From assembly GCA_036733285.1 (NCBI GenBank), contig DAINAU010000001.1:18954-82953 (forward strand): DNA of 64,000 bases, written 5' to 3'. A model generated the notes under the pieces. The model was not told where the DNA came from. It saw nothing but the letters and a program-made list of their open reading frames with translations, and did not search any database. Each line of letters begins with the position of its first letter. Position 1 is the stretch's first letter. Position numbers and translations under genes: made by a program. This document shows, piece after piece, positions 16,343-43,140 of the stretch. Source of the DNA: a bacterium. GTDB taxonomy: Bacteria; JAGOBX01.

Positions 16343-16346
16343 AATT

Positions 16347-25696: not shown

Positions 25697-27151
25697 ATGA
25701 AAAAAAAATCAAAAGCTATTATGTTTGTAGGAACGGGGTCGGATACCGGGAAAAGCATTATAACCGCCGCATTCTGCAGAATTTTAAAAAGACGCGGATT
25801 GAAAGTGGCGCCGTTCAAAGCGCAAAATATGGCGTTAAATTCGTATGTCTGCGATGGCGGCTATGAGATTGGCAGAGCTCAGGCTTATCAGGCGTTCGCA
25901 GCCGGAATTAAACCCGACTCGCGGATGAATCCGGTCTTATTAAAACCTTCAAGCGACTCTATGTCGCAGGTCATAATTAATGGCAAACCCCTTGATAACT
26001 TTACCGCTTCAAATTATTATAAACGCAGAAAAATTTTTAGAAACGCAAGCCGCGCAGCTTTTGATTCTTTGAGCGACGAATATGATTTTATTGTTATCGA
26101 GGGAGCCGGCAGTCCCGCCGAAATTAATTTGATGAAATACGATATTGTGAATATGTCAATGGCGGAATATGCCCAAGCTGACACTTATTTAATCGGCGAT
26201 ATTGATAAAGGCGGAGTATTTGCATCTTTGAAAGGAACAATTGATTTGCTTCCTGAAAAACACAAAAAATTGTTGAAAGGAATTATAATAAACAAATTCC
26301 GCGGAGATATGAATTTACTTATTCCGGCGTTTAAAATGTTCAGAAAATATTCTAAAATCCCTATAACCGGAGTTCTGCCTTATATTCATAACTTGACGGT
26401 TGACGAAGAGGATTCTCTGATGCGGGCAAACATCTCCGTAAATTCAGAAATTAATTCCGAAAACAAAATATGCGTCGGAATACTCGCATTGCCTCATACG
26501 TCGAATTTCACGGATTTCGACCCGTTTATTTATGAATCTGACGTTTTATTGAAATATATTTATAATCCTGAACATATTCAAGATTTTGATTGCGTTATCA
26601 TACCCGGCAGCAAATCGGTGGCTGCGGATTATCTTTTTTTGAAAGAAAGAAATTCTATTAAAACGCTCAGAAAATTTGCGGAAAATAAAAAAAAATTTCT
26701 ATTTGGCGTTTGCGGCGGTCTGCAAATGCTCGGTTCTAACATTACGGATTCCGACAATATCGAAGGTTCAATCAAAAAAACAAGGTTGTTAAATTTTTTT
26801 AATTTTAACACCGAACTGAAAAAAAATAAAATTTTAAGACAGGTTGATGATGCGATTAATTTCTGTAACCGTAAATTTAAAATTACCGGTTATGAGATTC
26901 ACAACGGGGTTAGCGATATAACGCAGGCGGATAAAAATTTTATGATGCGCGATAATATTGCGGCTTCGTATATTCACGGTTTATTTGACAACGATTCATT
27001 CAGACGCGCTTTTTTAAATCATCTTCGTTCAATTAAAGGATTAAAACCGGTCTGCAAAATAACAAATATAACTAAAATCAAAGAAAAAAACATTGATTGC
27101 CTTGCCCATATTGTTGAAACTAATCTTTCCTCGTTATCCCGAAAACTCTAA
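25697..27151 (+). CDS. cobQ: Cobyric acid synthase-like protein (CobQ/CbiP: ATPase domain plus class-I glutamine amidotransferase domain).
   Basis: GTGSDTGKS P-loop variant, MNP motif, and GATase catalytic FGVCGGLQMLG. The 484-aa length is typical of CobQ. I see no other cob/cbi genes in the window. Confidence 0.75.
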   Translation: MKKKSKAIMFVGTGSDTGKSIITAAFCRILKRRGLKVAPFKAQNMALNSYVCDGGYEIGRAQAYQAFAAGIKPDSRMNPVLLKPSSDSMSQVIINGKPLDNFTASNYYKRRKIFRNASRAAFDSLSDEYDFIVIEGAGSPAEINLMKYDIVNMSMAEYAQADTYLIGDIDKGGVFASLKGTIDLLPEKHKKLLKGIIINKFRGDMNLLIPAFKMFRKYSKIPITGVLPYIHNLTVDEEDSLMRANISVNSEINSENKICVGILALPHTSNFTDFDPFIYESDVLLKYIYNPEHIQDFDCVIIPGSKSVAADYLFLKERNSIKTLRKFAENKKKFLFGVCGGLQMLGSNITDSDNIEGSIKKTRLLNFFNFNTELKKNKILRQVDDAINFCNRKFKITGYEIHNGVSDITQADKNFMMRDNIAASYIHGLFDNDSFRRAFLNHLRSIKGLKPVCKITNITKIKEKNIDCLAHIVETNLSSLSRKL

Positions 27152-27209
27152 CTTTTTTGAAAATCTAAGCCGAATTTGACAAGATACCAAAAAAAACGCA
27201 AAGCTTTTT

Positions 27210-28505
27210 TTATTTTTTTCCGAGAAGTCTGAACATATTTTTTTTATAAGCTTCCACCCCGGGCTGGTCGAAGGGATTAACGTTCAGCAAATAACCGCTC
27301 AACGCGCACGCGCGCTCAAAGAAATATAATAATTGCCCGATATAATACTCGTTAAGCTGCGGCATACTTATTTTCAGATTCGGAACTTTTCCGGAAATAT
27401 GAGCTTCGATAGTTCCCTGCATTGCCTTTGAATTAACAAAATCAGTTTGTTTGCCCGCGATATAATTTAATTCGTCAAGGTCTTCATTTTCTTTTGGAAT
27501 AGGACAATTTACGTTCGCGTTTTCAATTTCCAGAACGGTTTCAAAAATATTTCTGACTCCGTCCTGAATCCATTGGCCCATTGAATGAAGGTCGGTTGTA
27601 AAATCGCATGACGCCGGAAATAGAGCTTTTCCGTTTTTCCCTTCGCTCTCTCCGTATAATTGTTTCCACCATTCTGAAATGTAATGAAGTTCCGGATTGT
27701 AATTGACAAGCAATTCTATATTTTTATTGTATTTTGAATACATAAGAAATCTTACAGCGGCGTATTGCATGGCTATGTTATTTTCTATTTTAAGATTTGT
27801 ATCAAGGATTTTTTTCATATCGCGGCTGCCCTGAATCAATTTTCTTATATCTATGCCTGCCGCCGCTATCGGCAGTAAGCCCACCGGAGTTAAAACTGAA
27901 AATCTTCCGCCTACGTCTTCGGGTATTACGAAAGACTGCCAACCTGCGGAATCCGCCATTTTTCTTAAAGCTCCTTTTGATTTGTCCGTTGTGGCAATGA
28001 TATGATTTTTAGAATTTTTTTTATATTTTTTCTCAAGAAGATTTTTTATAAATCTGAACGCTATCGCCGGCTCGGTTGTAGTTCCGGATTTTGATATTAC
28101 GTTCGCATAAATCTGTTTTTTTGATTCCAGTATTGTTAATAATTCAGTTAAATATCTGCCCGAAATATTATTGCCCGCAAAAAATATCTGCGGCTTTAAT
28201 TTCAATATGTTAAATGTTCCCGCTATCGCTTCAATTACCGCTTTCGCGCCAAGATAAGAACCTCCAATGCCTATCGATACAAACGCGTCGCCGTTTTTAC
28301 GTATTTTCGCCGCCAATGATTCTATTGAATCCAAATCTTTTTTTGTAACAGTATCGGGCAAATCCGTCCATCCGAGAAATTCCGAACCCGCGCCGGTTTT
28401 GGTCTTGACGGATTTTTCGATTTTAACGAGTTGTCCTGAAATTTTTTTTAAATCTCCGCTCTTTGCCAACAATGAATTTGAATAATCGAATTTTATTGAT
28501 TTCAT
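27210..28505 (-). CDS. pgi: Glucose-6-phosphate isomerase.
   Basis: The start is the internal ATG at 28505 (MKSIKFDYSN, GGAGG 8 nt upstream). GGRFSVLTPVGLLPIAAAGIDI and GESEGK motifs are present. Confidence 0.88.
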   Translation of the reverse strand: MKSIKFDYSNSLLAKSGDLKKISGQLVKIEKSVKTKTGAGSEFLGWTDLPDTVTKKDLDSIESLAAKIRKNGDAFVSIGIGGSYLGAKAVIEAIAGTFNILKLKPQIFFAGNNISGRYLTELLTILESKKQIYANVISKSGTTTEPAIAFRFIKNLLEKKYKKNSKNHIIATTDKSKGALRKMADSAGWQSFVIPEDVGGRFSVLTPVGLLPIAAAGIDIRKLIQGSRDMKKILDTNLKIENNIAMQYAAVRFLMYSKYNKNIELLVNYNPELHYISEWWKQLYGESEGKNGKALFPASCDFTTDLHSMGQWIQDGVRNIFETVLEIENANVNCPIPKENEDLDELNYIAGKQTDFVNSKAMQGTIEAHISGKVPNLKISMPQLNEYYIGQLLYFFERACALSGYLLNVNPFDQPGVEAYKKNMFRLLGKK

Positions 28506-28608
28506 TATTTTTACCTCCAAAGCGTTTTTTATATGCAATCCTGATTTCAGAAAAAAATAATTTTTTAGTAAAAACTATATTTCCTTTTCCGAAAAAATCC
28601 GGCTTAAG

Positions 28609-29247
28609 TTATTCTTCCTGAATATAAAAATGCGGAATAATGCCTTTTGATTCGAGACGTCTCGCTTCATAAACCGCATCGCGTCTTAATTTGAATTTAC
28701 CTATTCTTACTTTATACATATTGCCTGATTTTACAGCGTAAGCGTCGCAACCGCGGGTTTTTAAAATATCCCGGAAAGATTCCGCTTCTTTTGAAGTTTT
28801 ATACGAATAAACTTCAATTAAATAAGTTTTATTTTTTTTTGATGGTTTTGTTTTGAGATTATTTTTTTTCCCCGCCGGTTGTTTATTGTTTGGGTTTGCG
28901 GCGGCGTCAACATTTTTTGGAGGTTCTTCGGTTTTAGCGCCGCTTTTATTCTCGGCGTTTTCCGCGGCGGTTTGAGAATCGTTTCCCTTATTTGCGGCGG
29001 TCTGCTGTTTTCCTGAATCGGCAATTTGAAACGTTCCGTTTAATATCGATGTGTCCGGCTGCGTAATTTTATAAAGAACATTACTCTGATTTTCAACTCG
29101 CGAGTTTTTGAAAGATACGGTTTTTCCGGTAAAATATCCGGCGCCGAAAACAACCGCTAATATCGCCAAACATATAAAAATTATTATCTTTACGGCTTTT
29201 TGTTCAATATTTAAAATATATTTTTTTCCGCCGGAATCGTTTTTCAT
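28609..29247 (-). CDS. SPOR-domain membrane protein (cell-division-associated peptidoglycan binding).
   Basis: One TM helix, a low-complexity Lys/Asn/Pro-rich linker, and a C-terminal SPOR-like fold (YLIEVYSYKTSKEAESFRDILK...YKVRIGKF). Confidence 0.6.
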   Translation of the reverse strand: MKNDSGGKKYILNIEQKAVKIIIFICLAILAVVFGAGYFTGKTVSFKNSRVENQSNVLYKITQPDTSILNGTFQIADSGKQQTAANKGNDSQTAAENAENKSGAKTEEPPKNVDAAANPNNKQPAGKKNNLKTKPSKKNKTYLIEVYSYKTSKEAESFRDILKTRGCDAYAVKSGNMYKVRIGKFKLRRDAVYEARRLESKGIIPHFYIQEE

Positions 29248-29873
29248 TTATACAAATCCCCCGATTTTATATTTTCTTTATCATCATATATTTTTTTTAT
29301 GATATTGTCAATTTGTTTATGCAAATAAAGAAAATTTTTTTTATTATAAACCGTAAAATCCGAACGCTCGATTTTGTATTTCATCGGCAATTGCGAATTG
29401 ATTCGTTTCAACGCCTCGCTTTTTGAAAGATTGTTTCGTTTCATAAGTCTTTTTAACTGCAAGTATTTTGGACAGACGACTGTTATTATCATATCGGTTT
29501 CAGATTCAAGTCCGGTTTCAAATAATAATGGAATATCAATAAATATAATCGGATTATTCTTCAACGCTTTAATCTTTAAATTGATTTCTTTAATGATATG
29601 CGGATGCGTTATAGAATTTAATTTTTGCAATTTGCTTTTGTCGCTAAAAACAATAGCTCCCAATTGTTTTCTGTCAACGGTTCCGTTTTTTGAGGTTAGT
29701 TTAAATGCGGTCATTATTTTACGGTTTAACGCTTGGCGCGTATTCAATAAATGATGATATATCGCGTCGGAACAAATTACGGGAAAATTTTTCTTTCGCA
29801 AATATTCAAGCGTCTCGGATTTGCCTGAAGCTATGCCTCCGGTAATTCCTATTCTCAATGGTTTGACTTTCAT
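29244..29873 (-). CDS. coaE: Dephospho-CoA kinase.
   Basis: IGITGGIASGKSE P-loop and a 209-aa CoaE-like layout. Confidence 0.85.
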   Translation of the reverse strand: MKVKPLRIGITGGIASGKSETLEYLRKKNFPVICSDAIYHHLLNTRQALNRKIMTAFKLTSKNGTVDRKQLGAIVFSDKSKLQKLNSITHPHIIKEINLKIKALKNNPIIFIDIPLLFETGLESETDMIITVVCPKYLQLKRLMKRNNLSKSEALKRINSQLPMKYKIERSDFTVYNKKNFLYLHKQIDNIIKKIYDDKENIKSGDLYK

Positions 29874-31927
29874 ATTTCGATTTCTATAACAAATGGTTCT
29901 TTTCCTATTCCGAACACGCCGCTTTTCCCTTTTTTTATGACGCTATATTTTAATTTTGATTTTTCAACTTTATATTTCTGATATGCTTTTTTAACGCAAT
30001 CATCAAGCGTATCGCCAGAAATTTTTATTTTCTTCGATTCGTTGATTTCAGTTAAAACCGCATTGCGTTTAACAGGCAGCAGTTTGGATATTAATTCTAT
30101 TTTATCCTCTCCTTCTTTTAATTGCGCGGCGAATATTCTGCATTTGGTTTTTGATTCGCATAGTTTTTCGACAGCGCATTTTTCTTCTCCCGAATCAAGA
30201 AATCTCATAGCCGTTTCTACAGCTTTTTTTTCAATGCTTCCTTCAATAATTATTGATTTTCTGATATTTAACGGATCGATTTGCTCGCTTGTCGCCGAAC
30301 TTGTTTTTATATTCGCCGACGTTTCTCCGGTTATTTTTCCGGAACTGAATCTTGATACGGTTATTCCTGATTTTGTATAAATTACTGAAACGTCGGTCAG
30401 TTCTTCATTGATTTCTTTTGGCAAACCGTTGAACTTAATCATAACTTTAGGCGATATTTTTTTTCTCGCAGAAACTCTCATAGTTCCGGCGTCAGCCGAT
30501 TTGAACTTATCGAGTTCTTCAATCTTACCGTTTATGTAATCTATATTTTTTTCAAGTTTTATCCTGAACTGAATACAATTCTTGATTTTTAAATCAAGTT
30601 CTTTTGAGGTGTCGCCAATATCTCTTTTTTCCGTAAGTTCTTTAAACGTCTGATTTATTTTTTTCAGTTCGCGGTCGGCTTCGTTTTTTGAATTGATTAA
30701 TTTTGATTTTTCGATGTTCTCTTTTGAAACTGTTTTCAATGAAATTTCAGTCTGCGTTTCTCCGTCTCCGATTATTCCGCATACCACGCTTTTCCCTGAT
30801 TCTATCAATCCGCCGCAAATTAGTTGTTTGTTTCCGTCGAGTATTATATCGCCCGTTGCGGAAATGGAACTTGAAATTATTTCTTCCGAAACAAGTATAT
30901 TGGATTCCGAGGTCAGTTTGGAATTATATATTCCCGAAGTTATAATATTTCCGGTTACTATAAACGGTTTGGAATCGCAATTTGAAATTTTTCCGGAAAC
31001 GTATAAATCGCCTTTCACGCTCACTCCGGTATTTACAAGATCTCCAATTATATATAAATCTTTCCCGGTCTTTAAATATCCGCAGTTTGAAACCGAACCG
31101 TTCACAATCAACGAGTTTTCGCATATAATATCTTTCGGATAATTTGACACGGATTTATCTATGCTTTGAATTGCGGAAACTTCCAATTTTTCATCAATCC
31201 ATCTTACCCTTCCGTTAATCTTTGAAAAATAAGAATTACGGTTTTTGGATATTAAAATATTTTCTCCGGGTTCCAAACTTTTAAATTGCTTGCTTTTCAA
31301 TACGGGCAGCAAAGTAGCGGAGATTATTTGTCCGGGTATTACTCTTCTGTAATAATATAAGTTCGATAATATTTCCGACGAATTAGCGTCAAATAAAAAA
31401 CGGTCAAAACAATAAAAATTTAATTTGTCAATGTTTCTTAACTGATTTATTATTTTTTCGGCTTCAGCGGGATTTAACCCTACAAACGAATCGTCTATTG
31501 TTTCGCTTGATTTTACTTCGGAAGATTTTATATCTTTAAGAACCCCCGACAATTGACTGTCGAACTCTTCGTCAATAACATAAAGATATTTTGATAAAGT
31601 AAGTTTTTTAGTTGATTCGTCGTAGCCGATTTTTCCGATGTGTTTTTTTAAAACCGCAAATTGCTCTTTTTTGGTTTTTAGATATTCGGGCGGAATATTC
31701 GATAATTCCACGATTACGGTCGTATTGTCGATTTTACAAACGCCCGGAACCTGAGTTTTATCGTCGATTATATCGTAAAGAATATTATCCGTAAAATAAT
31801 ATAATCCGGCTACAAGTTCGGATATGTCGCCCGCTTGACTGGCGTTCTTTATATTTTTTACCGCATACGCCGTGATCTGTTCAATAAACGAATAATCGAG
31901 TTCAGCCGAAAATCTGATTTCATTCAT
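29870..31927 (-). CDS. FapA/DUF342-family protein (beta-solenoid repeats plus coiled coil).
   Basis: Repetitive GD/GN-rich beta-helix segment (GDLYIIGDLVNTGVSVKGDLYVSGKISN...ATGDIILDG), then a coiled coil and a C-terminal small domain. Confidence 0.45.
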   Translation of the reverse strand: MNEIRFSAELDYSFIEQITAYAVKNIKNASQAGDISELVAGLYYFTDNILYDIIDDKTQVPGVCKIDNTTVIVELSNIPPEYLKTKKEQFAVLKKHIGKIGYDESTKKLTLSKYLYVIDEEFDSQLSGVLKDIKSSEVKSSETIDDSFVGLNPAEAEKIINQLRNIDKLNFYCFDRFLFDANSSEILSNLYYYRRVIPGQIISATLLPVLKSKQFKSLEPGENILISKNRNSYFSKINGRVRWIDEKLEVSAIQSIDKSVSNYPKDIICENSLIVNGSVSNCGYLKTGKDLYIIGDLVNTGVSVKGDLYVSGKISNCDSKPFIVTGNIITSGIYNSKLTSESNILVSEEIISSSISATGDIILDGNKQLICGGLIESGKSVVCGIIGDGETQTEISLKTVSKENIEKSKLINSKNEADRELKKINQTFKELTEKRDIGDTSKELDLKIKNCIQFRIKLEKNIDYINGKIEELDKFKSADAGTMRVSARKKISPKVMIKFNGLPKEINEELTDVSVIYTKSGITVSRFSSGKITGETSANIKTSSATSEQIDPLNIRKSIIIEGSIEKKAVETAMRFLDSGEEKCAVEKLCESKTKCRIFAAQLKEGEDKIELISKLLPVKRNAVLTEINESKKIKISGDTLDDCVKKAYQKYKVEKSKLKYSVIKKGKSGVFGIGKEPFVIEIEI

Positions 31928-31954
31928 TTTGATGATTTATCCCGAATTTCAAAG

Positions 31955-33013
31955 TTATTCAGCGGCGACTTCGTCTTTAGCGTTTAAATCGAAATTCTGA
32001 AAAATTTTATTTTTTATTTCTTCAAGCAATTCCGGATTTTCAGCAAGCGTCTGTTTTGCCATTTCTTTTCCCTGTCCGAGTTTGGTTTCATTATATGAAA
32101 ACCACGCGCCGCTTTTATTTATGATTTTTAAATCTATCGCCGAGTCCACTATGCATCCAATTTTTGAAATTCCTTCAGAATATATTAAATCAAACTCCGC
32201 GCTTTTAAACGGCGACGCCATCTTGTTTTTCACAATTTTAACGCGCGATTTTATTCCTATCATTTCGTCGCCTTTTTTCAAGGTTTCGGCTTTTCTTATT
32301 TCCATACGCATTGAAGCGTAAAATTTTAATGCGTTGCCGCCAGTGGTTGTTTCCGGATTTCCATACATTACTCCGATTTTCATTCTGACCTGATTGATGA
32401 ATATCATTGTCGTATTCGATTTGCTTAAAACGCCGGTTAATTTTCTGAGCGCTTGAGACATTAAACGGGCTTGAAGTCCCATATGCGAATCGCCCATTTC
32501 CCCTTCAATCTCCGCCCTCGGAGTTAACGCCGCAACCGAATCCACAACTATAACGTCGAGCGCGCCCGACCTTACAAGTTGTTCCGCTATTTCAAGCGCC
32601 TGCTCTCCGTCGTCCGGCTGCGAGATATATAAATCAGAAGTGTTCACGCCAAGCAATTCCGCGTATGTCGGATCAAACGCGTGTTCTGCGTCTATAAACG
32701 CGGCTATGCCTCCCTGTTTCTGAGCTTCGGCTATTATGCTTAAAGTTAATGTCGTTTTTCCGGAGGATTCCGGTCCGTAGATTTCTATTATTCTGCCGCG
32801 CGGAACTCCGCCTATTCCCGTAGCTACGTCAAGCGTTAGTATTCCGCTTGGTATAACGGGCAATTTCTGATGCTCTGAATCGCCAAGTTTCATTATTGCG
32901 CCTTTGCCGTATTTCTTTTCTATCCCTGAAATCGCGCTGTCCAGCACCTTTAATTTATCTTTGTTTGAATCTGCCGCTGGTTTTGTCTCTTGTTCCGGTT
33001 TTGCTTTTGCCAT
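31955..33013 (-). CDS. recA: Recombinase A.
   Basis: [13 protein letters not shown] Walker [27 protein letters not shown]. The 352-aa product has an AGGAGA RBS. Confidence 0.97.
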
Positions 33014-33325
33014 TTTTTTGTCTCCTGTTTTTTTATTTTTTTTACGCGAAAATAATCTTTCCGATTTTTCCGCTCCTTTATTTTTAATACAATTTTATGA
33101 ATAAATATATTTTAAATCTTTTATATGAAAAATGCAATAAACTTTTTAACGTTTAATTTTTGTGAGGTCGAGTTCACAAAAATGGAAAACCCGACTTCGA
33201 ACAACAAATAACAAAATTAATAAAAAATTAAAAATCTGCGCAAATCTGTTAAATCTGTAATCAATCAGTGTTAAAAAAAATCTTAACACATATGTAGACT
33301 GATTAAACTGATTTAACGGATGCGG

Positions 33326-34306
33326 TTATTTTATATTTTCAATTAATTCTTTAAAAATAACGCTATTAACGACATATTTGGAAGTATTATTCGGCTCCTT
33401 AACATCGGAATAAATCGCTTCCCAATGTCTGCCGGTTCTAATTTCCGAATAAGTATCATAAATAATAACATATAATATTTTTTCAATATTAAATTTTTTC
33501 TTTAATAAATTTTCATCGGCAGTTTCTTTTAACATAAAAATTCTTTTAGCGTCTATTGCTTGGTTATCCTGCCCGCCGCCAGCCATATTCTGTTCTTTAT
33601 GCGCGCCAATAATTAATGTATTTTTAATTTTACATATTACATCGGGATATTTTAATTCGGTAACGCCCAAAATATTAAGTATTCCGTCAATTTTTTTTAC
33701 TTCTTTTTCGTCAATAAGCCAATCCCCGCTATTTGATATTTCTTTTTGTAATAAAAGTTTTTTGGAAAGCAAATCAAAAACAATTTTATCAAACATTCCC
33801 TTTCTTCGAGTAGGCGATTTAAGAATATATTTTGATTCTAAATTACTTAACATTATAGCAAAAAAATGATAATCAATATTTTTTATTATTTCAAATAATT
33901 GTAATGATTTTAACTGGGTTAATAATAATTCTTCATCTTTAAGCAATGAGTCTATTTGATTTAAACCTGAAATATTTAAAAGTAACCAACAAAATGATTC
34001 GATACCATTAACATTATTTCTTTTTTCTTTTATTTCTTTTAAAACAAGTTTTATATTTTCAATTGCAATATTTAATATTTTCTCGTCAATATTATCAATT
34101 GATAATTCATCTTTTTTTTTCAAATCATATAAATAAACGATATAATTTTTTATTTTATTTATTGCGTTTTTGTATTCTTCGCTGTAACGAAATTCAAATC
34201 CCATATCTTTAAAAATTTCTTGATAAACTGGATTTAGAAAAGCAATATTATTTATTCTATATTGTTTATTATTAAATTTATCAAAACATTCTTGCGGCAG
34301 TAGCAT
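33326..34306 (-). CDS. Hypothetical protein. Candidate restriction endonuclease of the two-MTase R-M module.
   Basis: The 326-aa product has no motif I recognise. It lies 10 bp downstream of, and in the same orientation as, two DNA MTase genes. Confidence 0.3.
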   Translation of the reverse strand: MLLPQECFDKFNNKQYRINNIAFLNPVYQEIFKDMGFEFRYSEEYKNAINKIKNYIVYLYDLKKKDELSIDNIDEKILNIAIENIKLVLKEIKEKRNNVNGIESFCWLLLNISGLNQIDSLLKDEELLLTQLKSLQLFEIIKNIDYHFFAIMLSNLESKYILKSPTRRKGMFDKIVFDLLSKKLLLQKEISNSGDWLIDEKEVKKIDGILNILGVTELKYPDVICKIKNTLIIGAHKEQNMAGGGQDNQAIDAKRIFMLKETADENLLKKKFNIEKILYVIIYDTYSEIRTGRHWEAIYSDVKEPNNTSKYVVNSVIFKELIENIK

Positions 34307-34316
34307 AAGGACACCT

Positions 34317-35768
34317 CTAATTAAAACTTAACTCTAATTGATTTGATTTTTCACCAATACAGTTTGTATTTAAAAAGTCTAAAACTTTATTTGCATTTTT
34401 TTCTGTTATTAGTTTAGAAAATCGAACTTTCATTTTTGGGGATAATTTTATCGGATATGTTTCTAATATTTTTTTAGCCTGCGTTAATCCTAAATATTTT
34501 CTCACATATTCGCTATTAGAATATTTATATGAAGTCATAAATTCACTGTCCGTAATTTCACGAAGATATTCTAAAATCAAATTAAAATAATCTTTAATTA
34601 TTTTTTGCTCGTCGATTAAAATATTTTCTTCAAAAAATATCTGAATTGGGTGAGTTCTAAATTTGCTTTTAGTTACTAAAATTCCATCGCAATCAAAAAT
34701 CTGTTTTGTAATATACAATCCAGCGCGTCCATCTTGAGAACCGGTATCGACAGTTCTAATAAATAAAATATTATTTTTGATTGTATTATAAATCAAATCA
34801 TTTACTTTTCTTTCTGTCTTTACATATTGTCCATTTTCAAATTTATTAGCGTCTAATAAATCAATAATTTTATTGCCGTTTATTATTGTTTTTTCTTCAA
34901 GATAAAACGAAAATTTAATTTTTTCGTTTTGAGTATATAAATCTAAAAAATCTGACAGTTCGTTACCTGCCCTATATGAATTTTTATATTTTAAAATATA
35001 TTTCTTTTCTACAGTTTTACAGTTAATTTTAACGCCATTAAAAATAATATCTTTTTTGTTTGTTTCATTTTTTCGTGTAAAATTACAAACCACAACATTT
35101 GTTCCAGTAAATTCAAAAATTTCTTTTTCAAATATTATTGCTTTATTCATAGTATAATACTGAAAGAAATCTTTCCGTATTTTATTTGAAACAGATGCGC
35201 CAAATAAAAAATTTGATGGAATTATATAAATCATTTTATATATTTTATTCCTTAAATCATTAATTAAAGCCAATTGATATAAATCTTGATATCCTTCATT
35301 AGATTTATCATTAAAATATTCAAAATTGGTTTTGAATCTTTCTTTGTTTTTTACAATATATCCTAAATATAAATATGGTGGATTTGTTATATGAAAAACC
35401 GGCTTCTGGAATTTTTTTAAAAATTTAATTGGATAATTTTTGATAGTATCATTTAAAAAAATATTTTTTTTTGCAATATCTTCCGGTATTCCTTTCGCCA
35501 TAGTATTTAATAATAGTTTATCAAAATTTTCTTTTTGAATTTCAAACATATAAATATTGTTTTTGAAAAATTCTATTTTTTTTTCAGGTTCTATATAATC
35601 TAAAATTGGCAGTATGAGATTTCCTTCTCCGGCATAAAGATCAATCCATACATACTCATTTATATTATCTTTTATCCAAGGAAAAATATATTCTTTAAAT
35701 AATTCAATTGGAGTAAAGTGTTCTCCATAAAATCGTTTGGTTTCTTTATTATTTAAAATTTCGTTCAT
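34317..35768 (-). CDS. Gamma-class N6-adenine DNA methyltransferase with a C-terminal recognition region.
   Basis: GEHFTP (motif X), IDLYAGEGNL (motif I) and HITNPPYL (motif IV). The 483-aa product overlaps the upstream MTase stop as ATGA. Confidence 0.75.
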   Translation of the reverse strand: MNEILNNKETKRFYGEHFTPIELFKEYIFPWIKDNINEYVWIDLYAGEGNLILPILDYIEPEKKIEFFKNNIYMFEIQKENFDKLLLNTMAKGIPEDIAKKNIFLNDTIKNYPIKFLKKFQKPVFHITNPPYLYLGYIVKNKERFKTNFEYFNDKSNEGYQDLYQLALINDLRNKIYKMIYIIPSNFLFGASVSNKIRKDFFQYYTMNKAIIFEKEIFEFTGTNVVVCNFTRKNETNKKDIIFNGVKINCKTVEKKYILKYKNSYRAGNELSDFLDLYTQNEKIKFSFYLEEKTIINGNKIIDLLDANKFENGQYVKTERKVNDLIYNTIKNNILFIRTVDTGSQDGRAGLYITKQIFDCDGILVTKSKFRTHPIQIFFEENILIDEQKIIKDYFNLILEYLREITDSEFMTSYKYSNSEYVRKYLGLTQAKKILETYPIKLSPKMKVRFSKLITEKNANKVLDFLNTNCIGEKSNQLELSFN

Positions 35769-36454
35769 TTTATTTCTTTTAAGCGTATTTTCGTTATTTT
35801 ACAAAAATCTGAATCAATTTCAATCCCGATATACTTTCTGTTTAATTTTTTACAAGCGACAAGCGTTGTTCCGACTCCGGCAAAACAATCCAATACATTA
35901 TTGTTTTCTTGTGAAGCAATTTGTATGATATTTTCAATTAATTTAATTGGTTTTTGAGTAATATGCTGTTTCTTATCTTTTTTAAAATTTGATTGCGGTT
36001 GCGCAAATTCCCAAACATCGTTATATAATAATTTTTCTGAATTATTTTGTTCCCAAATGTTTAATTTGTTTTTTCCTTTTGCAAACATCAACAATCCTTC
36101 CCAATTATTTCTTAATCTGTCAAAAGGAGTAAATTTGTAATAATTTTTTTTATACCATACAATAAAATTTTTGTAGGCAAAACAATTTTTTTCTCCAATA
36201 TCTATGATATAACTGCTTAGTCTTACATCGCAAAAGCAAAAAAAAAATCCTTTATGAATTTTTTCTGAAAGTATAGCAAAGATATCAGATAACCAATTAA
36301 TATAATCATTTAGTGTTTTCCATTGATTATCCCATTTTATTGATTTTAGGTTGTTATAATACGGTGGATCAATTATAATTAAGTCAATAGAATTATCGTC
36401 AATTTTTTTTAACAATTTCTGGCAATCGCCGCAATACAAAATATTTGTTTTCAT
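35765..36454 (-). CDS. Beta-class DNA methyltransferase (N4-cytosine or N6-adenine; the DPPY motif precedes the FxGxG motif).
   Basis: LIIIDPPYY (motif IV) lies N-terminal and LDCFAGVGTTLVA (motif I) lies C-terminal, which is the beta-class permutation. The product is 229 aa. Confidence 0.8.
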   Translation of the reverse strand: MKTNILYCGDCQKLLKKIDDNSIDLIIIDPPYYNNLKSIKWDNQWKTLNDYINWLSDIFAILSEKIHKGFFFCFCDVRLSSYIIDIGEKNCFAYKNFIVWYKKNYYKFTPFDRLRNNWEGLLMFAKGKNKLNIWEQNNSEKLLYNDVWEFAQPQSNFKKDKKQHITQKPIKLIENIIQIASQENNNVLDCFAGVGTTLVACKKLNRKYIGIEIDSDFCKITKIRLKEIK

Positions 36455-36530
36455 ATACTATCAAATTATAAATTTTATTACGATTAAAGAATTCGTTTTA
36501 TACCTGCTTCTCTTTTCAGGATCAATTATT

Positions 36531-37118
36531 TTATTCCGCTTTTTTTGATAAGAATTTTAATCTGCGGAATTTTTTGAATTTAAGATTTTTTTTATATTTA
36601 ATAAACCATCTTTCAATAAGAATTACGCATTTATATGAAACTATCGCGCCAATGATTCCAATAATAAATCCGCCTATTTCAGTTGCCCAGAAAAAACCTT
36701 TTATGCGGTTCCAAAAATGTAAAAAGCCTTCTTGAGTGGTAAAATAATAAAGAGAAAGATTAACCGGGTCTCCGGCAAATTTCACTAAAAATCGCGTTAT
36801 TTCATTATAACTTATCGGATTGACCGGCAAGTCAAATATTTGAAAAAGCTGTTTGCCGAAAATATAAGAAACATAATACCAAAACGGAGTTGTTATGAAA
36901 GGTCCCACTACCCACGCCCCGATAATTGCGGCTAGTATATTGCCGCCGAACAATGGCGCTAAAAATGAAAGCAGCGTATTGAAAGGATAAGAAGGAAATA
37001 TCGCTAAAAAAGTTCCCCACGCGAATCCTCTGGCTATACGCTCCAGTTTATCCTGAATGCGCATTAACTTAATGAATTTTAATTTTATTATCCTTTGCAG
37101 TCGATTAATTGAAATCAT
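36531..37118 (-). CDS. DUF2062-family membrane protein.
   Basis: ARGFAWGTFLAIFPSYPFNTLLSFLAPLFGGN signature. The true start may be the internal Met (MRIQDKLERIARG). Confidence 0.5.
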   Translation of the reverse strand: MISINRLQRIIKLKFIKLMRIQDKLERIARGFAWGTFLAIFPSYPFNTLLSFLAPLFGGNILAAIIGAWVVGPFITTPFWYYVSYIFGKQLFQIFDLPVNPISYNEITRFLVKFAGDPVNLSLYYFTTQEGFLHFWNRIKGFFWATEIGGFIIGIIGAIVSYKCVILIERWFIKYKKNLKFKKFRRLKFLSKKAE

Positions 37119-37132
37119 ATTTGTTTGGAAGT

Positions 37133-38371
37133 TTAATTTTGTTTTTCAATAAAATCAATGATTTTTTTTAAAATTACATTTCTACGATTGTTTTTCTGTT
37201 GTAGAAAAATTATTATTTTCAGCTCTCCGAATCTTGGCGAATCATAATATCCCGCTATTGAATATACGCCGGACAATGTTCCGGTTTTAAAATTTCCTTC
37301 GTTTTTGGTTCTCATCAGATTTTTGTATTTTTGAAATAAATTCAATATAAAATTCATTTCTAAACAGTTTATTTTGTTTTCTCTCGATAATCCCGACGCT
37401 TCTTTAATTTTTATTTCGGAAACGCCGGTAAAATATTTAATAAAATTATTGAAGGATTCCACGCTTTTATCAAGCGTAGCCGGCTCTCCGAAATCCCTCG
37501 CTCCTATGTGCAGAAAAATCTGGTTTATCATAAAATTATTTGAAGAAATCATAATTTTATTTATAATATCGGCAAGATTCGTCCGGTTATAATGTCTGAA
37601 TAAAAAGTTTTGATTTATCGCCTTTTTTTTCCAGACTCTTCCCTTTACTTCTACGCCGGTTTCTTTTAAAAAATAACTTAGTAAAGAACCAAAATATTTT
37701 TCAGGAAGATCCGCGGAACCTTTAAGATTTATTCTCGACGAACCTCTAAATTTTATTTTTTTTAAATATTCGGCTGAAAAATCAGTTATTGGAGTTTCGC
37801 GTTCTATCGATTGATATATTTTTTTTCGGTTGTTGTATTTTGCGGCGATAGTGTTAAAGTTGGCGCTTAAAGCTCCGTTGGGACTATCGTAAGGATTTAA
37901 TGTTTTACCTTTTCCCGGGATTATAAGTCTGTCTTCAAAATATGAATCGTCAACGTAAATATTTCTTACGGTTTTTATTTGATTGCCGATTTGTTCAGCC
38001 ATGCTTTTTATTTCTTCTGATACAAGAAAAGGATCTCCGTATCCTTTTACGTATAAATCATTATTTACGGAATCAAAAAAAACATCCGTGTAAAATCTGT
38101 AATTTTCTCCGAGTTTGGATAGCGCAAAATACGAAGTTATAATTTTAATTGTCGACGCGGGAGTAAATGGTTCGTTTTCATTGTATTTCAATAAAATATT
38201 ATCGTATCTATCCGTAACAAGAACCGCGCCGTTTTGAATTAAGCTCAAAATTGCATCCGGCAATTCAAAAGCGGCTTTGTTTGAAATCAAAGGTATTCCG
38301 GCAAGTTTTAATTCGAATATTATTAATAATAAAGTAATCGCTGAAAATTTTTTTAGAAATAGATTGAGCAT
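37133..38371 (-). CDS. dacB: D-alanyl-D-alanine carboxypeptidase/endopeptidase (PBP4/DacB family, peptidase S13).
   Basis: Signal peptide, SxxK motif FTPASTIKIITSYFAL, and a PBP4-like length (412 aa). Confidence 0.65.
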   Translation of the reverse strand: MLNLFLKKFSAITLLLIIFELKLAGIPLISNKAAFELPDAILSLIQNGAVLVTDRYDNILLKYNENEPFTPASTIKIITSYFALSKLGENYRFYTDVFFDSVNNDLYVKGYGDPFLVSEEIKSMAEQIGNQIKTVRNIYVDDSYFEDRLIIPGKGKTLNPYDSPNGALSANFNTIAAKYNNRKKIYQSIERETPITDFSAEYLKKIKFRGSSRINLKGSADLPEKYFGSLLSYFLKETGVEVKGRVWKKKAINQNFLFRHYNRTNLADIINKIMISSNNFMINQIFLHIGARDFGEPATLDKSVESFNNFIKYFTGVSEIKIKEASGLSRENKINCLEMNFILNLFQKYKNLMRTKNEGNFKTGTLSGVYSIAGYYDSPRFGELKIIIFLQQKNNRRNVILKKIIDFIEKQN

Positions 38372-38526
38372 AAATCAAAACAAATCATAATCGTAACAAT
38401 ATTTTTGAAAGCGGTTTAAGAATAAACTCCTCCCGCGAAAGCGATAGAATTTCAAAAAATAATCTCGTTTTATTGTTCAGATGTTGTAATCAAACTGTTA
38501 AAACGGTTTGAAAAAGGCGTATTTTT

Positions 38527-38550
38527 TTATTAACCCCGCAATTGATTGCG
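38527..38550. promoter_or_regulatory. Perfect GC-rich 11-bp inverted repeat (AACCCCGCAAT tg ATTGCGGGGTT) in the AT-rich intergenic region upstream of dacB. Candidate operator or structural hairpin.
   Basis: The palindrome is seen directly. No U-tract follows on either strand, so I do not call it a terminator. Confidence 0.3.
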
Positions 38551-38621
38551 GGGTTAATGATAGAATATCCATAAAATAAACCGTTTTAACGGTTTTAAAA
38601 ATGTTCCTGAATAGTAACGTT

Positions 38622-39020
38622 TTATTCCGCATTATTCCGAACAACTTTTATTCCCGGACAATCGTTCGTTACATAATCAAGATACTCGCTGTCCTCAAGA
38701 ATTTTTTTCCAGTAAGGATAAGTTATGCATTGGCTTGGTCGGCGCTCGTAAATTTCGCATCTGTTGTCATTCTTTAAAAACACGCATCTGAAATCCTCAT
38801 AGGATTTTTTAATTTCTTTCAATGAAATTTTACCGTTGACTTTTCTGGCGAATTTTTTTATGAAAACGTTTAACGGTATTTTTAAAAATTCCGCGATTCT
38901 TATTTGCTCTTCTTTTGTCAGCCATACGTATCCGGTAACGCCGGAACAGCAATTTCCGCATTGAACGCACTTGAAAATTATTTTGTCGCTCTCTATAGAT
39001 TCGATGATTTCTTTTTTCAT
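38622..39020 (-). CDS. YkgJ/UPF0153-family Cys-rich Fe-S or Zn protein.
   Basis: CVQCGNCC CxxCxxCC motif plus additional Cys residues. The product is 132 aa. Confidence 0.6.
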   Translation of the reverse strand: MKKEIIESIESDKIIFKCVQCGNCCSGVTGYVWLTKEEQIRIAEFLKIPLNVFIKKFARKVNGKISLKEIKKSYEDFRCVFLKNDNRCEIYERRPSQCITYPYWKKILEDSEYLDYVTNDCPGIKVVRNNAE

Positions 39021-39055
39021 AATATATTATAACGATACAATGTTATCCTTAAAAT

Positions 39056-40030
39056 TCATCTTATTATCGTATCGGCTTTATTCATTACCGATTCCGGAAA
39101 AGATATGTTTTGTTCCTTGCAGCTTTTTTCATTAATTGCAAGCCGATAAGCGTTATAAGAAATAAGTGTTCCGTTTTTTTTGTTTCCCGACAAAATATCA
39201 GCGGCTAATTTTCCGCTTTGAAAACCCCAGTCATAATAATCGATTCCGTAACCTATTGACGCTCCGTTTTTCACTATTGACGGGTCGGTCACAAATATTG
39301 GAATATTAAACTCTTTTGCTATTCTCATAAGACCCGTGATTCCTGCATATACGGTATTATCAGCCGCTACGACAAAAGCGTCGATTTTATTCATTGCAAG
39401 CGCTTGCGCCGCGTTCGGAATATCGTTTATGGAAATTATTGGAGATTCAAAAACCTCAATATTATTTTCTTTGCAGATGATTTTTATTTTACCGGCTGCA
39501 AACTGAGCGTTCACTTCGGCGGAATTATAGGGAAGCCCGATTTTTTTTATTGCAGGGATACATTCCTGCATAAGGGAAACAAAACTCGTTAAATCGTAAG
39601 GATCGTAATAACCTGATAAATTTGAAGGCGGATTAGCTAAGCCTATGTCTTGAGGCGAAAAAGAAACCGTGAAAACCACTGGAATTTTTTTAATTAATTT
39701 TGCAGCCGCAGCCATACAGGGAGTAGTGTTTGTTATTATCAAATCAATATTTTCAGATTCAAATGTTTTTAGAATTAAAGAAATATTAGCTAAATCTCCT
39801 TGAGCGTTTTTTTTTATTATTTTAATGTTTTGCCCGTCAACAAAACCCGACTGTTTTAACCCTTCGAATACGCCTGACGCCGCAATATCCAATTGTTCTT
39901 CTTCAATTAGTTGTATAAAACCCACTTTAAAAATTTTTGTTTCTTTGCTGTTGCAAGATACAATAAAAAATAGCGAGAATGCTAAAATTGCAACAGACCT
40001 CAAAAATAATTTAAAAAACATTTTAATCAT
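39056..40030 (-). CDS. ABC-transporter substrate-binding lipoprotein (ABC_sub_bind/BMP-like family). Orphan, with no permease or ATPase nearby.
   Basis: Lipobox FIVSCNS and an overall periplasmic binding-protein-like pattern (VGFIQL...DLIITNTTP...GIDYYDWG). Confidence 0.5.
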   Translation of the reverse strand: MIKMFFKLFLRSVAILAFSLFFIVSCNSKETKIFKVGFIQLIEEEQLDIAASGVFEGLKQSGFVDGQNIKIIKKNAQGDLANISLILKTFESENIDLIITNTTPCMAAAAKLIKKIPVVFTVSFSPQDIGLANPPSNLSGYYDPYDLTSFVSLMQECIPAIKKIGLPYNSAEVNAQFAAGKIKIICKENNIEVFESPIISINDIPNAAQALAMNKIDAFVVAADNTVYAGITGLMRIAKEFNIPIFVTDPSIVKNGASIGYGIDYYDWGFQSGKLAADILSGNKKNGTLISYNAYRLAINEKSCKEQNISFPESVMNKADTIIR

Positions 40031-40123
40031 ACTCCTTTAAAATTTTGCGTCTTATCAAAAATATTCTTGGAGTTTCAGCAAGAATATTTTTGATAAGATT
40101 AATAGCTTTTCCGCAAATGCGGC

Positions 40124-41425
40124 TTATGTTTTTAATTTTTTTTGTTTAGCCGCAGGAAACAGTATATTGTTAAGAATTAATCTGTATCCCTGCGAATTTT
40201 TGTGAAAACTAAGATTCGTATGCTCGGCTCCGACTCTATGCGCGTAGTCTTCCGGGTCGTGTCCGCCCAAATAAGTTATAGTTCCTTTCCCGAATTTTCT
40301 ATGGAGATATTTAACGCATTTATTTCCTATTGTTTTTCCCATTATGATACATTCTTTTTTTATTTTTTCTTCGCGGAACGCTGTTGTCAATCCGAAAAAT
40401 CCTTTTACTATTCTATTATGATTTTGAGTGAGCATAGTCGGAACCTGGTCGAATTTTGCCGAAAAATCAAATAACTCAAAAGGCTGATCTTCGATTCTTT
40501 TCGGAGTATTGACCCAATTGTAATCTATATCTGATTTGGGATTAAAATTAGGATCGCTTATAACCGTAAAATTTTCAAAAACAAGACATTTTGAATAATC
40601 GATTTTTTTCATATAATCCGGATCGAATGGAGTGCCGTCGATTTCCTGCGCTATATAATCCGTTCCTTCGAGCGACAACGCTATGTCAAGAGCTTCCGGC
40701 GCCGAACACATTGCAAATAAAAATCCTCCGTTTGAAACGTAATTTTTTATCGCTTTTGAAACCGAAGTTTTTTCTTCGCAAACAGAATTGAACCCTTGCG
40801 TTATCGCAAATTTTCTGTATTCCGCTACGCGCGTCATATACCATGGAGAGTTTTGAAATGATCTGTAGAACTTATCGTATTGTCCGGTAAAATCCTCGTG
40901 ATGCAGATGAAGCCAGTCATAATCGCTTAGACCCGACTTCAATATCTTGTCATCCCATATTTTATCGTAAGGAACTTCCGCATACGTAAGCGCGAGAGTA
41001 ACCGCGTCATCCCACGGATTATTAGTCGAAGGAGCATAGACCGCGATTTTCGGAGCTTTTTCAAGCTCAATCTTATCCATATTTTCTTCTTGAATCGTCA
41101 ATTCGATTTGATTCAATTGTTTGTCGTCGATTATTTCGTAATATACGCCTGATATTTTAAGGTTTTTTACGGCTTCATCGGAATACGGCAGAAGAAACGA
41201 ACCGTCTCTGTAATTCAAAAGCCAGTAAATTTTTCCGGCGGAATTTTTTTCCGCTAATGATTTATACGCGGCTCCGTATGCTTTCAAATGATCCGTTTGT
41301 TTTTCGTCCATCGGAACAAGTATGTTGTTTGAAAAAACAATCGAATTATATAAGAATAAAAATACCGCCGAAAATATTGTTTTTATCAGAATCTTTTTTT
41401 TTTCTATTAACATTAATATTAACAT
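40124..41425 (-). CDS. Secreted hypothetical protein, possibly with a class-I glutamine-amidotransferase-like fold.
   Basis: N-terminal hydrophobic segment. The GGFLFAMCSAPEALD segment is reminiscent of a GATase1/DJ-1 nucleophile elbow. The match is weak. Confidence 0.35.
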   Translation of the reverse strand: MLILMLIEKKKILIKTIFSAVFLFLYNSIVFSNNILVPMDEKQTDHLKAYGAAYKSLAEKNSAGKIYWLLNYRDGSFLLPYSDEAVKNLKISGVYYEIIDDKQLNQIELTIQEENMDKIELEKAPKIAVYAPSTNNPWDDAVTLALTYAEVPYDKIWDDKILKSGLSDYDWLHLHHEDFTGQYDKFYRSFQNSPWYMTRVAEYRKFAITQGFNSVCEEKTSVSKAIKNYVSNGGFLFAMCSAPEALDIALSLEGTDYIAQEIDGTPFDPDYMKKIDYSKCLVFENFTVISDPNFNPKSDIDYNWVNTPKRIEDQPFELFDFSAKFDQVPTMLTQNHNRIVKGFFGLTTAFREEKIKKECIIMGKTIGNKCVKYLHRKFGKGTITYLGGHDPEDYAHRVGAEHTNLSFHKNSQGYRLILNNILFPAAKQKKLKT

Positions 41426-41439
41426 TATGCGGTTATATT

Positions 41440-42930
41440 TTATTTATGCGCTCCGGTGCCTTTAATCTCTTTCGCGGTTTTTCTGTATGCTACCATCAAT
41501 TCCGATAATTCCAGCGCTTCTTCTTTTATTTTTTTAGCGTTTAATGTTTTGAAACTATAGTTTTCTTTCAAGATTTTTCCGTTTGCAACAACATCGCTTA
41601 CTTCGCTTCCGTCCGCAGCCCAGATTATATTATCAATTACGTTGTCTTTTCTTGTCGGAACCATATTAGGTCTTTCAAGGTCGATTAAAATAACGTCGGC
41701 GTCTTTGCCTGATTCTATCGAACCCGTATTCATTCGCAAAAATTTCGCCGGTTCGATTGTTATCATTTCAAGAGTTTTTTGCGCCGGCAACAGAGTCGCG
41801 TCTTGATGAAGCGCCTTTTGATATTGAGATGCAAGACGGGCCGCGTTTATAATTGATTGATTATCCGCGCTGCCTGAACCGTCGGTCGATATTACTACGG
41901 GGATTCCCATTTCCATCATTTTTATTACAGGCGGCATTCCCGAACCGAGTATTGTATTAGCAAGCGGATTATGAACGACTTTCGCTTTTGTTTTTTTTAG
42001 GATTTTTAAATCGTTTTCCGTACAGTTGACCTGATGCGCAAGTATGGTGTTCTCATCAAGAAATTTTATCGAGTTGAATAATTCAACCGGAGTCATTTTA
42101 TTATTTTTTGTGAACCACTTTGTAGTGTTCGGTTCTTCCGAACTATGAATGTGAATCAGCGTTTTGTGAGAATTAGCCCAGTTTTTAAGTTTTTTTAATA
42201 ATTCGGGCGTATTGGAAAAATCCTGGTCGGGTCCCGGAATAATTTGAGTTCGTTCCGCGTTTCCATATAATTTTATATAATCGTCCAGTCTTTTTACAGC
42301 TATGCCCGCAGGAATATCAAGTATCCTCGGATCATAATGCTGGTCTTGACTTCCTACCGCCACTATCATTTTTGTTCCGGCGTCGATATTCGCTTTAACA
42401 ATTTCGCCAACCCTGTATTTGTTGTGGTTGCAGTGATGAACCATTGAAGCTGTTATACCGTAATGTATATCGTCGAGTCGGGCTTTTATATAAGTTACAT
42501 AATTTGGAGATTTCCCGAATCTTTTTTCCAGCATACCGCGTTTTTCATTCATAAATCCCGTAAATAAATTTACCGCCTTGTCAAGCCACGGAGTTAACGG
42601 CATATCTTTGGCTATCCCAATTATCGGAGATTCGTGGTCGTGTCCGTGAGCTTTTACAAACCCAGGCAGAATTATTTTGTTCAAACATTTAATATCGCTT
42701 GATTTAAAACCCGATTTTTTTGAACATCCTAATATCTTCAAATTATTTCTGTATTTCTCAATTATTGATTTGCCTAATGATTCGCCGTATTTTCCAGAGC
42801 GTAATATTTTCCCGTCTTTTATCAATACGTAACCGTCTTCTATTACCGCGTTCCTTCCGAGTTTATCGCTAATCGGAACTAAAAATTTTCCCCTGATAAA
42901 AATATTTTTTTCCGTTTTTGTTTCACTCAT
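41440..42930 (-). CDS. Metal-dependent amidohydrolase-family protein (cytosine/guanine/MTA deaminase-like superfamily).
   Basis: The start is the ATG at 42930 (MSETK, GGAGG 9 nt upstream). HGHDHESP and HIHSSEE metal-binding motifs are present. Confidence 0.7.
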   Translation of the reverse strand: MSETKTEKNIFIRGKFLVPISDKLGRNAVIEDGYVLIKDGKILRSGKYGESLGKSIIEKYRNNLKILGCSKKSGFKSSDIKCLNKIILPGFVKAHGHDHESPIIGIAKDMPLTPWLDKAVNLFTGFMNEKRGMLEKRFGKSPNYVTYIKARLDDIHYGITASMVHHCNHNKYRVGEIVKANIDAGTKMIVAVGSQDQHYDPRILDIPAGIAVKRLDDYIKLYGNAERTQIIPGPDQDFSNTPELLKKLKNWANSHKTLIHIHSSEEPNTTKWFTKNNKMTPVELFNSIKFLDENTILAHQVNCTENDLKILKKTKAKVVHNPLANTILGSGMPPVIKMMEMGIPVVISTDGSGSADNQSIINAARLASQYQKALHQDATLLPAQKTLEMITIEPAKFLRMNTGSIESGKDADVILIDLERPNMVPTRKDNVIDNIIWAADGSEVSDVVANGKILKENYSFKTLNAKKIKEEALELSELMVAYRKTAKEIKGTGAHK

Positions 42931-43140
42931 TTCAATCCGCCTCCGCGTTTGCAATTTTTAAAGTTTAATATTTTTAGGCGATATTATATTACAAAAATTT
43001 GAAAAATGCAAATGTTATATTGAAAGGCAAAAAAAAGAGAGCGTTCAGAAATTGTTCCAACAATACTAAATCCGGATAACGCGTTATTAAACTCGGATAC
43101 TGCATTCGATGTAAAGTGAAGTTTTTCAAAACATAGATGA

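Follow-up and report, generated by a model that had tools for sequence, protein, structure and literature searches.

A probable Type II restriction-modification operon beside recA, with beta- and gamma-class methyltransferases and a candidate PD-(D/E)XK endonuclease of a very rare family

The DNA studied here, a window of 64,000 nucleotides from contig DAINAU010000001.1 (bacterial assembly GCA_036733285.1, forward-strand positions 18,954 to 82,953), carries a block of three genes between recA and a gene for a DUF2062 protein, beyond which lies a dacB-like gene. An earlier note, written from the letters alone, had described this block as a restriction-modification (R-M) module in which two DNA methyltransferases (MTases), one of beta class with a DPPY motif and one of gamma class with an NPPY motif, accompany a protein of 326 amino acids (aa) proposed as the nuclease. 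The three open reading frames (ORFs) were confirmed at the coordinates of Table 1, all on the minus strand; motif order and Pfam matches agree with this description of the block, and the Pfam matches of the flanking genes with its position. The genes for the beta MTase, the gamma MTase and the 326-aa protein look like a single operon, read in that order on the minus strand, because the first two share a 4-nt ATGA overlap and the third starts 10 nt past the gamma MTase stop codon, behind a Shine-Dalgarno-like GAGGTG sequence. Promoter and terminator scans of the block gave signals at background level only, and the spacers of the island contained no ORF for a controller (C) protein, no small RNA or tRNA attachment site and no Rfam match. 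The spacer between recA and the nuclease gene is unusually long (312 nt), without an Rfam match, a tRNA or a convincing ORF; inside it, at 33160..33215, an imperfect hairpin (GAGGTCGAG and CCCGACTTC, about 20 nt apart) could be the terminator of the R-M operon or a piece of recA regulation.

The classes of the two MTases follow from the order of their motifs. In the 229-aa protein motif IV lies ahead of motif I, the S-adenosylmethionine (AdoMet) motif, which places it in the beta class; in the 483-aa protein motif I comes before motif IV, without room for a target-recognition domain between them, which places it in the gamma class. The Pfam match of the gamma MTase stops at residue 298 of 483, followed by a C-terminal target-recognition region of about 200 aa, and a PDB sequence search with this protein returned no match. 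For the beta MTase, the top NCBIfam matches are adenine-MTase models, all well under their curated cutoffs, and the nearest solved relatives are M1.HpyAVI (5hek/5hfj, E 1.3e-21, over the full length) and M.MboIIA (1g60, E 8.8e-21); the PDB entry of the nearest one carries the label 'DpnA'. Taking into consideration the DPPY and NPPY motifs and the adenine-specific best matches, both enzymes most likely methylate adenine at N6, even if DPPY alone does not strictly exclude N4-cytosine. For the same reasons N4-methylcytosine, one of the two marks for which the earlier note proposed to look in the methylome, is not favoured.

The earlier note had recognised no motif in the 326-aa protein. The protein gave zero matches in Pfam, NCBIfam, PADLOC and PHROGs, and PDB sequence searches with the single sequence and with profiles returned none either. 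Among 5.8 billion clustered proteins we found 11 homologs, at 26-53% identity, and one fragment that is 100% identical; a HMMER profile search, run exhaustively over 1.84 billion representatives, gave only 11 matches at E≤1e-30. The nuclease family is extraordinarily rare, with about a dozen public members, and is unnamed in the four collections above.

An AlphaFold2 (AF2) model built from the family alignment (pLDDT 88.9, pTM 0.70) divides the protein into an all-helical N-terminal domain and a C-terminal domain in which DSSP assigns, in order, b196-199, b223-227, b230-238, a245-262, b276-284 and b310-313. The helical domain probably serves DNA recognition, dimerisation or both; its invariant residues are P4, N20, Y28, R96, N100, W107, F148, P165 and K169, and it holds the motifs RxNxNG and PTRRKG. 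In the C-terminal domain, the family alignment shows a block of the pattern K219-x-P-D222-x-x-C-K226 ... H236-K237-E238-Q239 ... G243-G244-x-Q246-D247-N248-Q249-x-x-D252, where D222, H236, K237, E238, G243, G244, Q246-Q249 and D252 are invariant in all 11 family members and C225 and K226 are kept in at least 90% of them. In the model, D222 stands just before strand 223-227, A235-H236-K237 lie in strand 230-238 and GGxQDNQxxD opens helix 245-262. The protein has in common with PD-(D/E)XK enzymes an alpha/beta core with a mixed sheet between helices, restriction enzymes as structural neighbours, a conserved Asp at the head of core strand 2 and a conserved Lys within the strand that follows, but not the acidic residue of (D/E)-x-K, position 235 being A, S or T in every family member. 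In hhalign alignments with Tsp45I-like relatives, K237 falls on the K of the canonical E-H-K and A235 on its E. In Cfr10I the active-site glutamate has migrated to the adjacent helix, giving a 'PD-XXK-E' arrangement (PMC3424549), and by this analogy D247 or D252 may complete the metal site in place of the ExK glutamate.

The weaker matches of the exhaustive search cover the C-terminal domain only and fall into two groups, A2 and A3, whose N-terminal regions differ from the N-terminal part of the 326-aa protein. Group A2 carries the signature K-[IFY]-PD...FI[IV]E[HQ]K.MKE.GGGQDKQ; one of its members (P0026, 26.3 bits) passes the gathering threshold of the Tsp45I family PF06300 (25 bits), and others approach it. 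Group A3 reads K-S-I-D-F...[AT]HKYTK..GG.QDNQ, with a likewise non-acidic residue at the Glu position ('xHK'), and six of its nine members match PF06300, the best at 4.5e-7. With hhalign, the family aligns to A2 at 98.0% (E 1.8e-13, 168 columns) and to A3 at 98.4% (E 7.8e-15), while PF06300 itself finds no match in the 326-aa protein even at E≤10 and comes to no better than E 6e-4 in two of the 11 family members. Tsp45I was placed in the PD-(D/E)XK superfamily by Steczkiewicz et al. (PMC3424549), and because the profile links run to Tsp45I-like groups, the 326-aa protein is by its sequence a predicted divergent branch of this known superfamily and not a new cleavage-domain family. The wider superfamily includes a 544-aa protein (P0040, from the exhaustive protein search) with two tandem K-S-[IL]-D...AAKYT[KE]E.GGGQDNQ nuclease domains in one chain, by its domain layout a putative single-chain pseudo-dimer.

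Structural comparison of the AF2 model with Foldseek also leads to restriction enzymes. The nearest solved structures are BstEII, BsoBI and NgoMIV, with BstEII as the best full-length match; the BstEII and BsoBI alignments show 11-14% identity, a TM-score of only 0.35-0.39 and a large global root-mean-square deviation. These Type IIP matches align past the catalytic core, over most of the 326-aa protein, and N.BspD6I and FokI are among the weak matches (E 0.03-0.08). The earlier note had supposed that the protein might represent an undescribed cleavage-domain family and had proposed profile and structure comparisons; once run (hhalign, AF2, Foldseek), these led away from that idea, as the C-terminal PD-(D/E)XK domain is linked to PF06300 through intermediate sequences and the protein falls among known restriction enzymes. 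The other part of the reading, an R-M module with the 326-aa protein as nuclease candidate, is borne out by the fold, by the remote homology and by the linkage to an MTase that is conserved among relatives, and we regard the protein as very probably a restriction endonuclease.

This linkage is seen in every relative with usable context: the gamma MTase gene adjoins the nuclease gene in the window and at L001-L006 and L008-L010. In the closest clade a beta MTase precedes the gamma MTase. One locus (L004) has a 229-aa beta MTase, a 480-aa gamma MTase and a nuclease 52% identical to ours, in the same order as in the window, and another (L098/L099) a beta MTase (78%) followed by a gamma MTase (66.5%). 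Two loci on short contigs (L005 and L006, nuclease 41-43% identical) carry a gamma MTase of about 490 aa in convergent orientation, whereas the most distant relatives (L001/L002 and L003, 26-32%; clade 3) have one 381-aa gamma MTase of the Eco57I/TaqI type directly upstream and no second MTase within 5-16 kb of context; at L008-L010 the C-terminus of the same MTase type lies upstream. Identity to the window copies drops in parallel, 69/46/29% for the gamma MTase and 52/42/32% for the nuclease, and because the two fall in step, gamma MTase plus nuclease is the conserved, co-diverging core of the family.

The beta MTase is an extra partner found only in the closest clade (window, L004 and L098/L099), where the beta-then-gamma tandem persists in three lineages diverged to 64-78% identity, twice with the 4-nt overlap. 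With 74% identity to the L004 copy and 78% to the L098/L099 copy, it is the best conserved of the three genes. Its lineage is rare, with three proteins at E≤1e-40 and no close homolog outside this setting at that threshold, a strict one that covers near relatives only.

Two of these loci hold further genes beside the pair. In L005 a partial gene at 2..526 (+), for a Tsp45I-like nuclease with the canonical IPD...IEAK...GGAQ, ends 4 nt before the family member P0006 (531..1523); its product aligns to the family C-terminal domain at 79% (hhalign, E 1.6e-5), and it could encode the second subunit of a heterodimeric enzyme or belong to a neighbouring R-M system. A heterodimer of nuclease and Tsp45I-like paralog was rejected as a model for the system studied here, the paralog being absent from the window and from L006 upstream of P0004. 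At L001 (5015..5662, +) and L002 (3151..3798, +; GCA_030601865.1) a LexA-like gene (a PF01726 DNA-binding domain plus a PF00717 S24 peptidase domain) ends 14 nt before the pair of 381-aa MTase and nuclease; it may be either the lexA of the host or the gene of a repressor that is coupled to the operon.

The block differs from its surroundings in base composition: its GC content is 0.240, against 0.337 ± 0.019 (minimum 0.289; z = -5.2) in 534 segments of the same size elsewhere in the stretch, and GC at third codon positions is 0.16-0.22 in the block genes against 0.29-0.42 in their neighbours. Because of this deviation we consider it highly probable that the block was gained by horizontal transfer. 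No notable flanking repeats, tRNA or integrase were found at the block, and on the question of a plasmid or phage source there was no tblastn match in annotated plasmids and phages and no relative by family profile among IMG/VR viral contigs. As a separate observation, recA is the GC-richest gene locally (0.43).

The earlier note had also seen the block as an insertion into a conserved neighbourhood. The foreign composition speaks for its insertion half, but the synteny comparison it had suggested did not bear out the rest. The order dacB-DUF2062-beta-gamma is present on same-species contigs (99.8-99.9% nucleotide identity) as well, in relatives with about 58% DUF2062 identity dacB-DUF2062 is followed by a convergent GH53/Endonuclease_1 gene and not by recA, and another DUF2062 relative has a wholly different context. 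A recA-anchored scan of 185,579 species, each represented by a single genome, gave 599 loci, and the best 80, which were inspected, were only 60-68% identical and of mixed phyla, with no close relative among them. A conserved recA-DUF2062-dacB neighbourhood was accordingly rejected as unproven, with the block present on same-species contigs and an unrelated gene downstream in the 58% relatives. The host recA is at most 68% identical to any of these 80 loci, its matches being spread across Bacteroidota, Fibrobacter, Bacillota and others, and the host lineage appears poorly sampled.

Taking these observations together, the block is probably a horizontally acquired Type II R-M operon, with the nuclease gene beside an MTase gene in a linkage conserved across relatives, and we propose that it works as follows. 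The beta and gamma MTases would both use AdoMet to add a methyl group at adenine N6 wherever host DNA holds the recognition sequence. This sequence would also be bound by the endonuclease. Dimeric, as its structural neighbours are, the enzyme would cut unmethylated incoming DNA, with Mg2+, inside or immediately beside the site. Catalysis would rest with D222 and K237 and an acid from the following helix (D247 or D252), a 'PD-xxK-acid' variant in the style of Cfr10I and NgoMIV. On balance we favour cleavage within or adjacent to the site over a shifted cut of the FokI kind. Retention of the second MTase would most likely reflect an asymmetric or quasi-palindromic site, for instance one whose asymmetric centre has an odd length. 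Protection by either MTase, acting as a monomer, would then reach only a single strand or a single variant of the site. For the closest clade such a site is the preferred reading, suggested by the retention of the second, coupled MTase in three diverged lineages; that the two MTases are strand- or variant-specific in this way is, in our judgement, an evenly balanced proposition.

Table 1. Coordinates of the R-M block, its predicted functional elements and its flanks in the 64,000-nucleotide window
Feature	Coordinates	Strand	Location or basis
Beta-class DNA MTase (adenine-N6 type), 229 aa	35765..36454	-	PF01555 N6_N4_Mtase 2e-42; PADLOC MTase_II 7e-50
DPPY catalytic motif IV, beta MTase residues 29-32	36359..36370	-	translation
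AdoMet motif FAGVG, beta MTase residues 191-195	35870..35884	-	translation
Gamma-class N6-adenine DNA MTase, 483 aa	34317..35768	-	PF02384 N6_Mtase 1.5e-12; PADLOC MTase_I 3e-8
NPPY catalytic motif IV, gamma MTase residues 129-132	35373..35384	-	translation
AdoMet motif YAGEG, gamma MTase residues 45-49	35622..35636	-	translation
Restriction endonuclease (inferred), 326 aa, very rare family	33326..34306	-	
N-terminal all-helical domain, about residues 1-185	33752..34306	-	DSSP on AF2 model
C-terminal PD-(D/E)XK nuclease domain, about residues 186-326	33329..33751	-	AF2/DSSP, hhalign
Putative active-site block: D222 (PD), C225-K226, A235-H236-K237-E238, G243-G244, Q246-D247-N248-Q249, D252	33551..33643	-	
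Low-GC island: three genes and both flanking spacers	33014..36530	.	between recA and DUF2062 gene
recA	31955..33013		flank on one side; PF00154 3.5e-137
DUF2062 gene	36531..37118		other flank; Pfam
S13 D-Ala-D-Ala carboxypeptidase gene, dacB-like	37133..38371		beyond DUF2062 gene; Pfam

Several characterised systems help to place the proposed one. Tsp45I cuts at GTSAC. With its family (PF06300) the 326-aa protein shares about 170 C-terminal residues that are homologous, at profile level, to proteins at or near the PF06300 threshold, the common signature K-x-PD ... x-H-K ... GG-x-QD[NK]Q-xx-[DE], a size near 330 aa and the layout of helical N-terminus and catalytic C-terminus, and its clade-3 relatives pair with a TaqI/Eco57I-type gamma MTase of about 380 aa. 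It departs from that family in its first 150 or so residues, which are not alignable, in the replacement of the E of E-H-K by A, S or T, and in the beta-class MTase added in its closest clade. BstEII recognises GGTNACC, and its structure has been deposited with the DNA substrate (PDB 9ibq; BsoBI is 1dc1). Neither BstEII nor BsoBI has detectable sequence similarity to the 326-aa protein, so the kinship is one of fold and no site can be inferred from it. The Cfr10I/NgoMIV/Bse634I group likewise lacks sequence homology to it, and CCGG-type recognition or tetramerisation is not indicated. From the HpyAVI and MboII systems come the small beta-class adenine MTases that are the best solved relatives of the window enzyme; M1.HpyAVI, from a system of two MTases and a putative restriction endonuclease, methylates adenine in asymmetric GAGG (PMC5173035). 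The partner MTase in the window, in contrast, belongs to the gamma class of adenine enzymes, the nuclease has no relation to the MboII or MnlI type, and the moderate similarity of the beta MTases is silent on specificity.

The main alternatives concern the role of the second MTase. The earlier note had taken two MTases as the hallmark of a Type IIS system, and the beta-gamma tandem kept in three lineages of the closest clade leaves part of that argument standing, while the single MTase of L001 and L003 and the compact, Type IIP-like nuclease take away from it. In a classical system of this type the helical N-terminal domain would read an asymmetric site, the PD-(D/E)XK module would dimerise transiently and cut outside it at a fixed distance, and one MTase would serve each strand. 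MTases of two classes conserved in three lineages would suit such a system, as would the two-domain protein, whose catalytic domain is common to A2 and A3 while the N-terminal regions differ, the nearness of the beta MTase to M1.HpyAVI and M.MboIIA from asymmetric-site systems, and the weak Foldseek matches to N.BspD6I and FokI. Type IIS enzymes, however, are larger, of recognition-linker-cleavage build, with a separate reading domain and a non-specific cleavage domain whose cuts lie outside the site, at a constant distance from it (PMC4081073). The enzyme considered here is a small one, with Type IIP enzymes as its best matches, aligned beyond the catalytic core, and its relatives at L001 and L003 manage with a single MTase; we therefore think a classical Type IIS system unlikely.

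Closer to the window in gene content is the DpnII cassette, dpnM-dpnA-dpnB, in which two adenine MTases of different classes (DpnM, of alpha class, and the second, DpnA, a small beta-class enzyme) are followed by a nuclease of about 290 aa. Both are three-gene operons of two MTases and a nuclease with a small beta-class MTase, but the partner of that enzyme is of alpha class in DpnII and of gamma class in the window, and the Pfam scan of the window proteins gave no match to the DpnII nuclease family (PF04556). A system built in this way would have a palindromic site, at which the gamma MTase would suffice for double-stranded host DNA and the beta MTase would be an accessory whose specificity equals or overlaps that of the gamma MTase, of use for example on single-stranded or incoming DNA, or for a faster establishment after transfer. 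That the core pair works with one MTase at L001 and L003, that the nuclease resembles homodimeric Type IIP enzymes, that the M-M-R gene order matches and that the nearest solved beta relative is labelled 'DpnA' make this arrangement a serious rival. It is still doubtful in our view, as the beta MTase is the best conserved gene (74-78%), lies upstream of the gamma MTase in translational coupling with it, and belongs to a lineage as rare as that of the nuclease, which suggests an obligatory partner. More remote from our proposal, the beta MTase might be independent of the gamma MTase-nuclease pair, as an orphan or a remnant of a second R-M system in the same island. Its absence from the clade-3 loci would agree with this, and R-M genes often cluster, as L005 illustrates with a second, Tsp45I-like nuclease gene abutting the family member; but the tandem in three lineages at 64-78% identity, twice with a 4-nt overlap, and the lack of close beta homologs outside this setting at E≤1e-40 make such independence very improbable. 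Least likely of all, we believe, is that the 326-aa protein is no nuclease but a DNA-binding regulator, a specificity factor or a dead PD-(D/E)XK relic. The missing canonical ExK glutamate and the want of a direct Pfam match could be read that way. Against it, D222, H236, K237 and GGxQDNQxxD are invariant among proteins down to 26% identity, which points to purifying selection on the active-site region; the 'xHK' variant also occurs in the independent group A3; enzymes such as Cfr10I are active with an acidic residue that has migrated (PMC3424549); and the protein is strictly linked to an MTase.

The system proposed here, a Type II R-M island, is ordinary in kind, and its predicted nuclease is a new, rare family-level member of the PD-(D/E)XK enzymes; this level of newness is assigned because the protein has no direct PF06300 membership and lacks the canonical ExK glutamate. 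The family thereby receives a putative function, namely restriction by a divergent PD-(D/E)XK endonuclease that is linked to an adenine MTase of gamma class. It may supply a new restriction specificity and would be a further case of active-site plasticity, by loss of the ExK glutamate. Conceptually the island is a routine case of defence and no new kind of system; only one feature goes further, the gain of a second MTase in a single clade, which may be of use for studying the evolution of recognition symmetry. A bolder reading, which we hold as rather doubtful, is that the step from clade 3, with its gamma MTase of about 381 aa and nuclease, to beta MTase plus gamma MTase plus nuclease records how a BstEII/Tsp45I-like enzyme, its active site a non-canonical D...A-H-K...D, changed in nature from recognising a palindrome to recognising an asymmetric or quasi-palindromic sequence. 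If true, it would offer a new specificity of commercial type and a rare natural series in which a dimeric Type IIP scaffold evolves asymmetric recognition; L005, with its tandem paralogous nuclease genes, and P0040, with two domains in one chain, would then be intermediate solutions to the same problem.

Two other genes of the window deserve mention. The gene at 29870..31927 (-) encodes a protein of 685 aa in which a FapA beta-solenoid domain (PF03961, 1.2e-22) is joined to Jag_N (PF14804, 9.8e-13) at the C-terminus, and at 40124..41425 (-) a 433-aa ORF has a predicted N-terminal hydrophobic segment and no Pfam match at E≤1e-3.

Word avoidance in 60 kb of host DNA was uninformative about the recognition site, the strongest depletions being those of generic 4-bp palindromes; GTSAC occurs 6 times against 14-24 expected, a depletion not significant after multiple testing. 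The avoidance of 4-bp palindromes in the host DNA (1..33013 and 36531..64000, both strands pooled, against a maximal-order Markov expectation) is very strong, with observed and expected counts of 8 and 100 for GTAC, 78 and 366 for GATC, 24 and 173 for GGCC, 38 and 131 for CATG and 4 and 66 for CTAG. This pattern is not attributable to the system beside recA and suggests that 4-cutter R-M systems have acted on the lineage for a long time.

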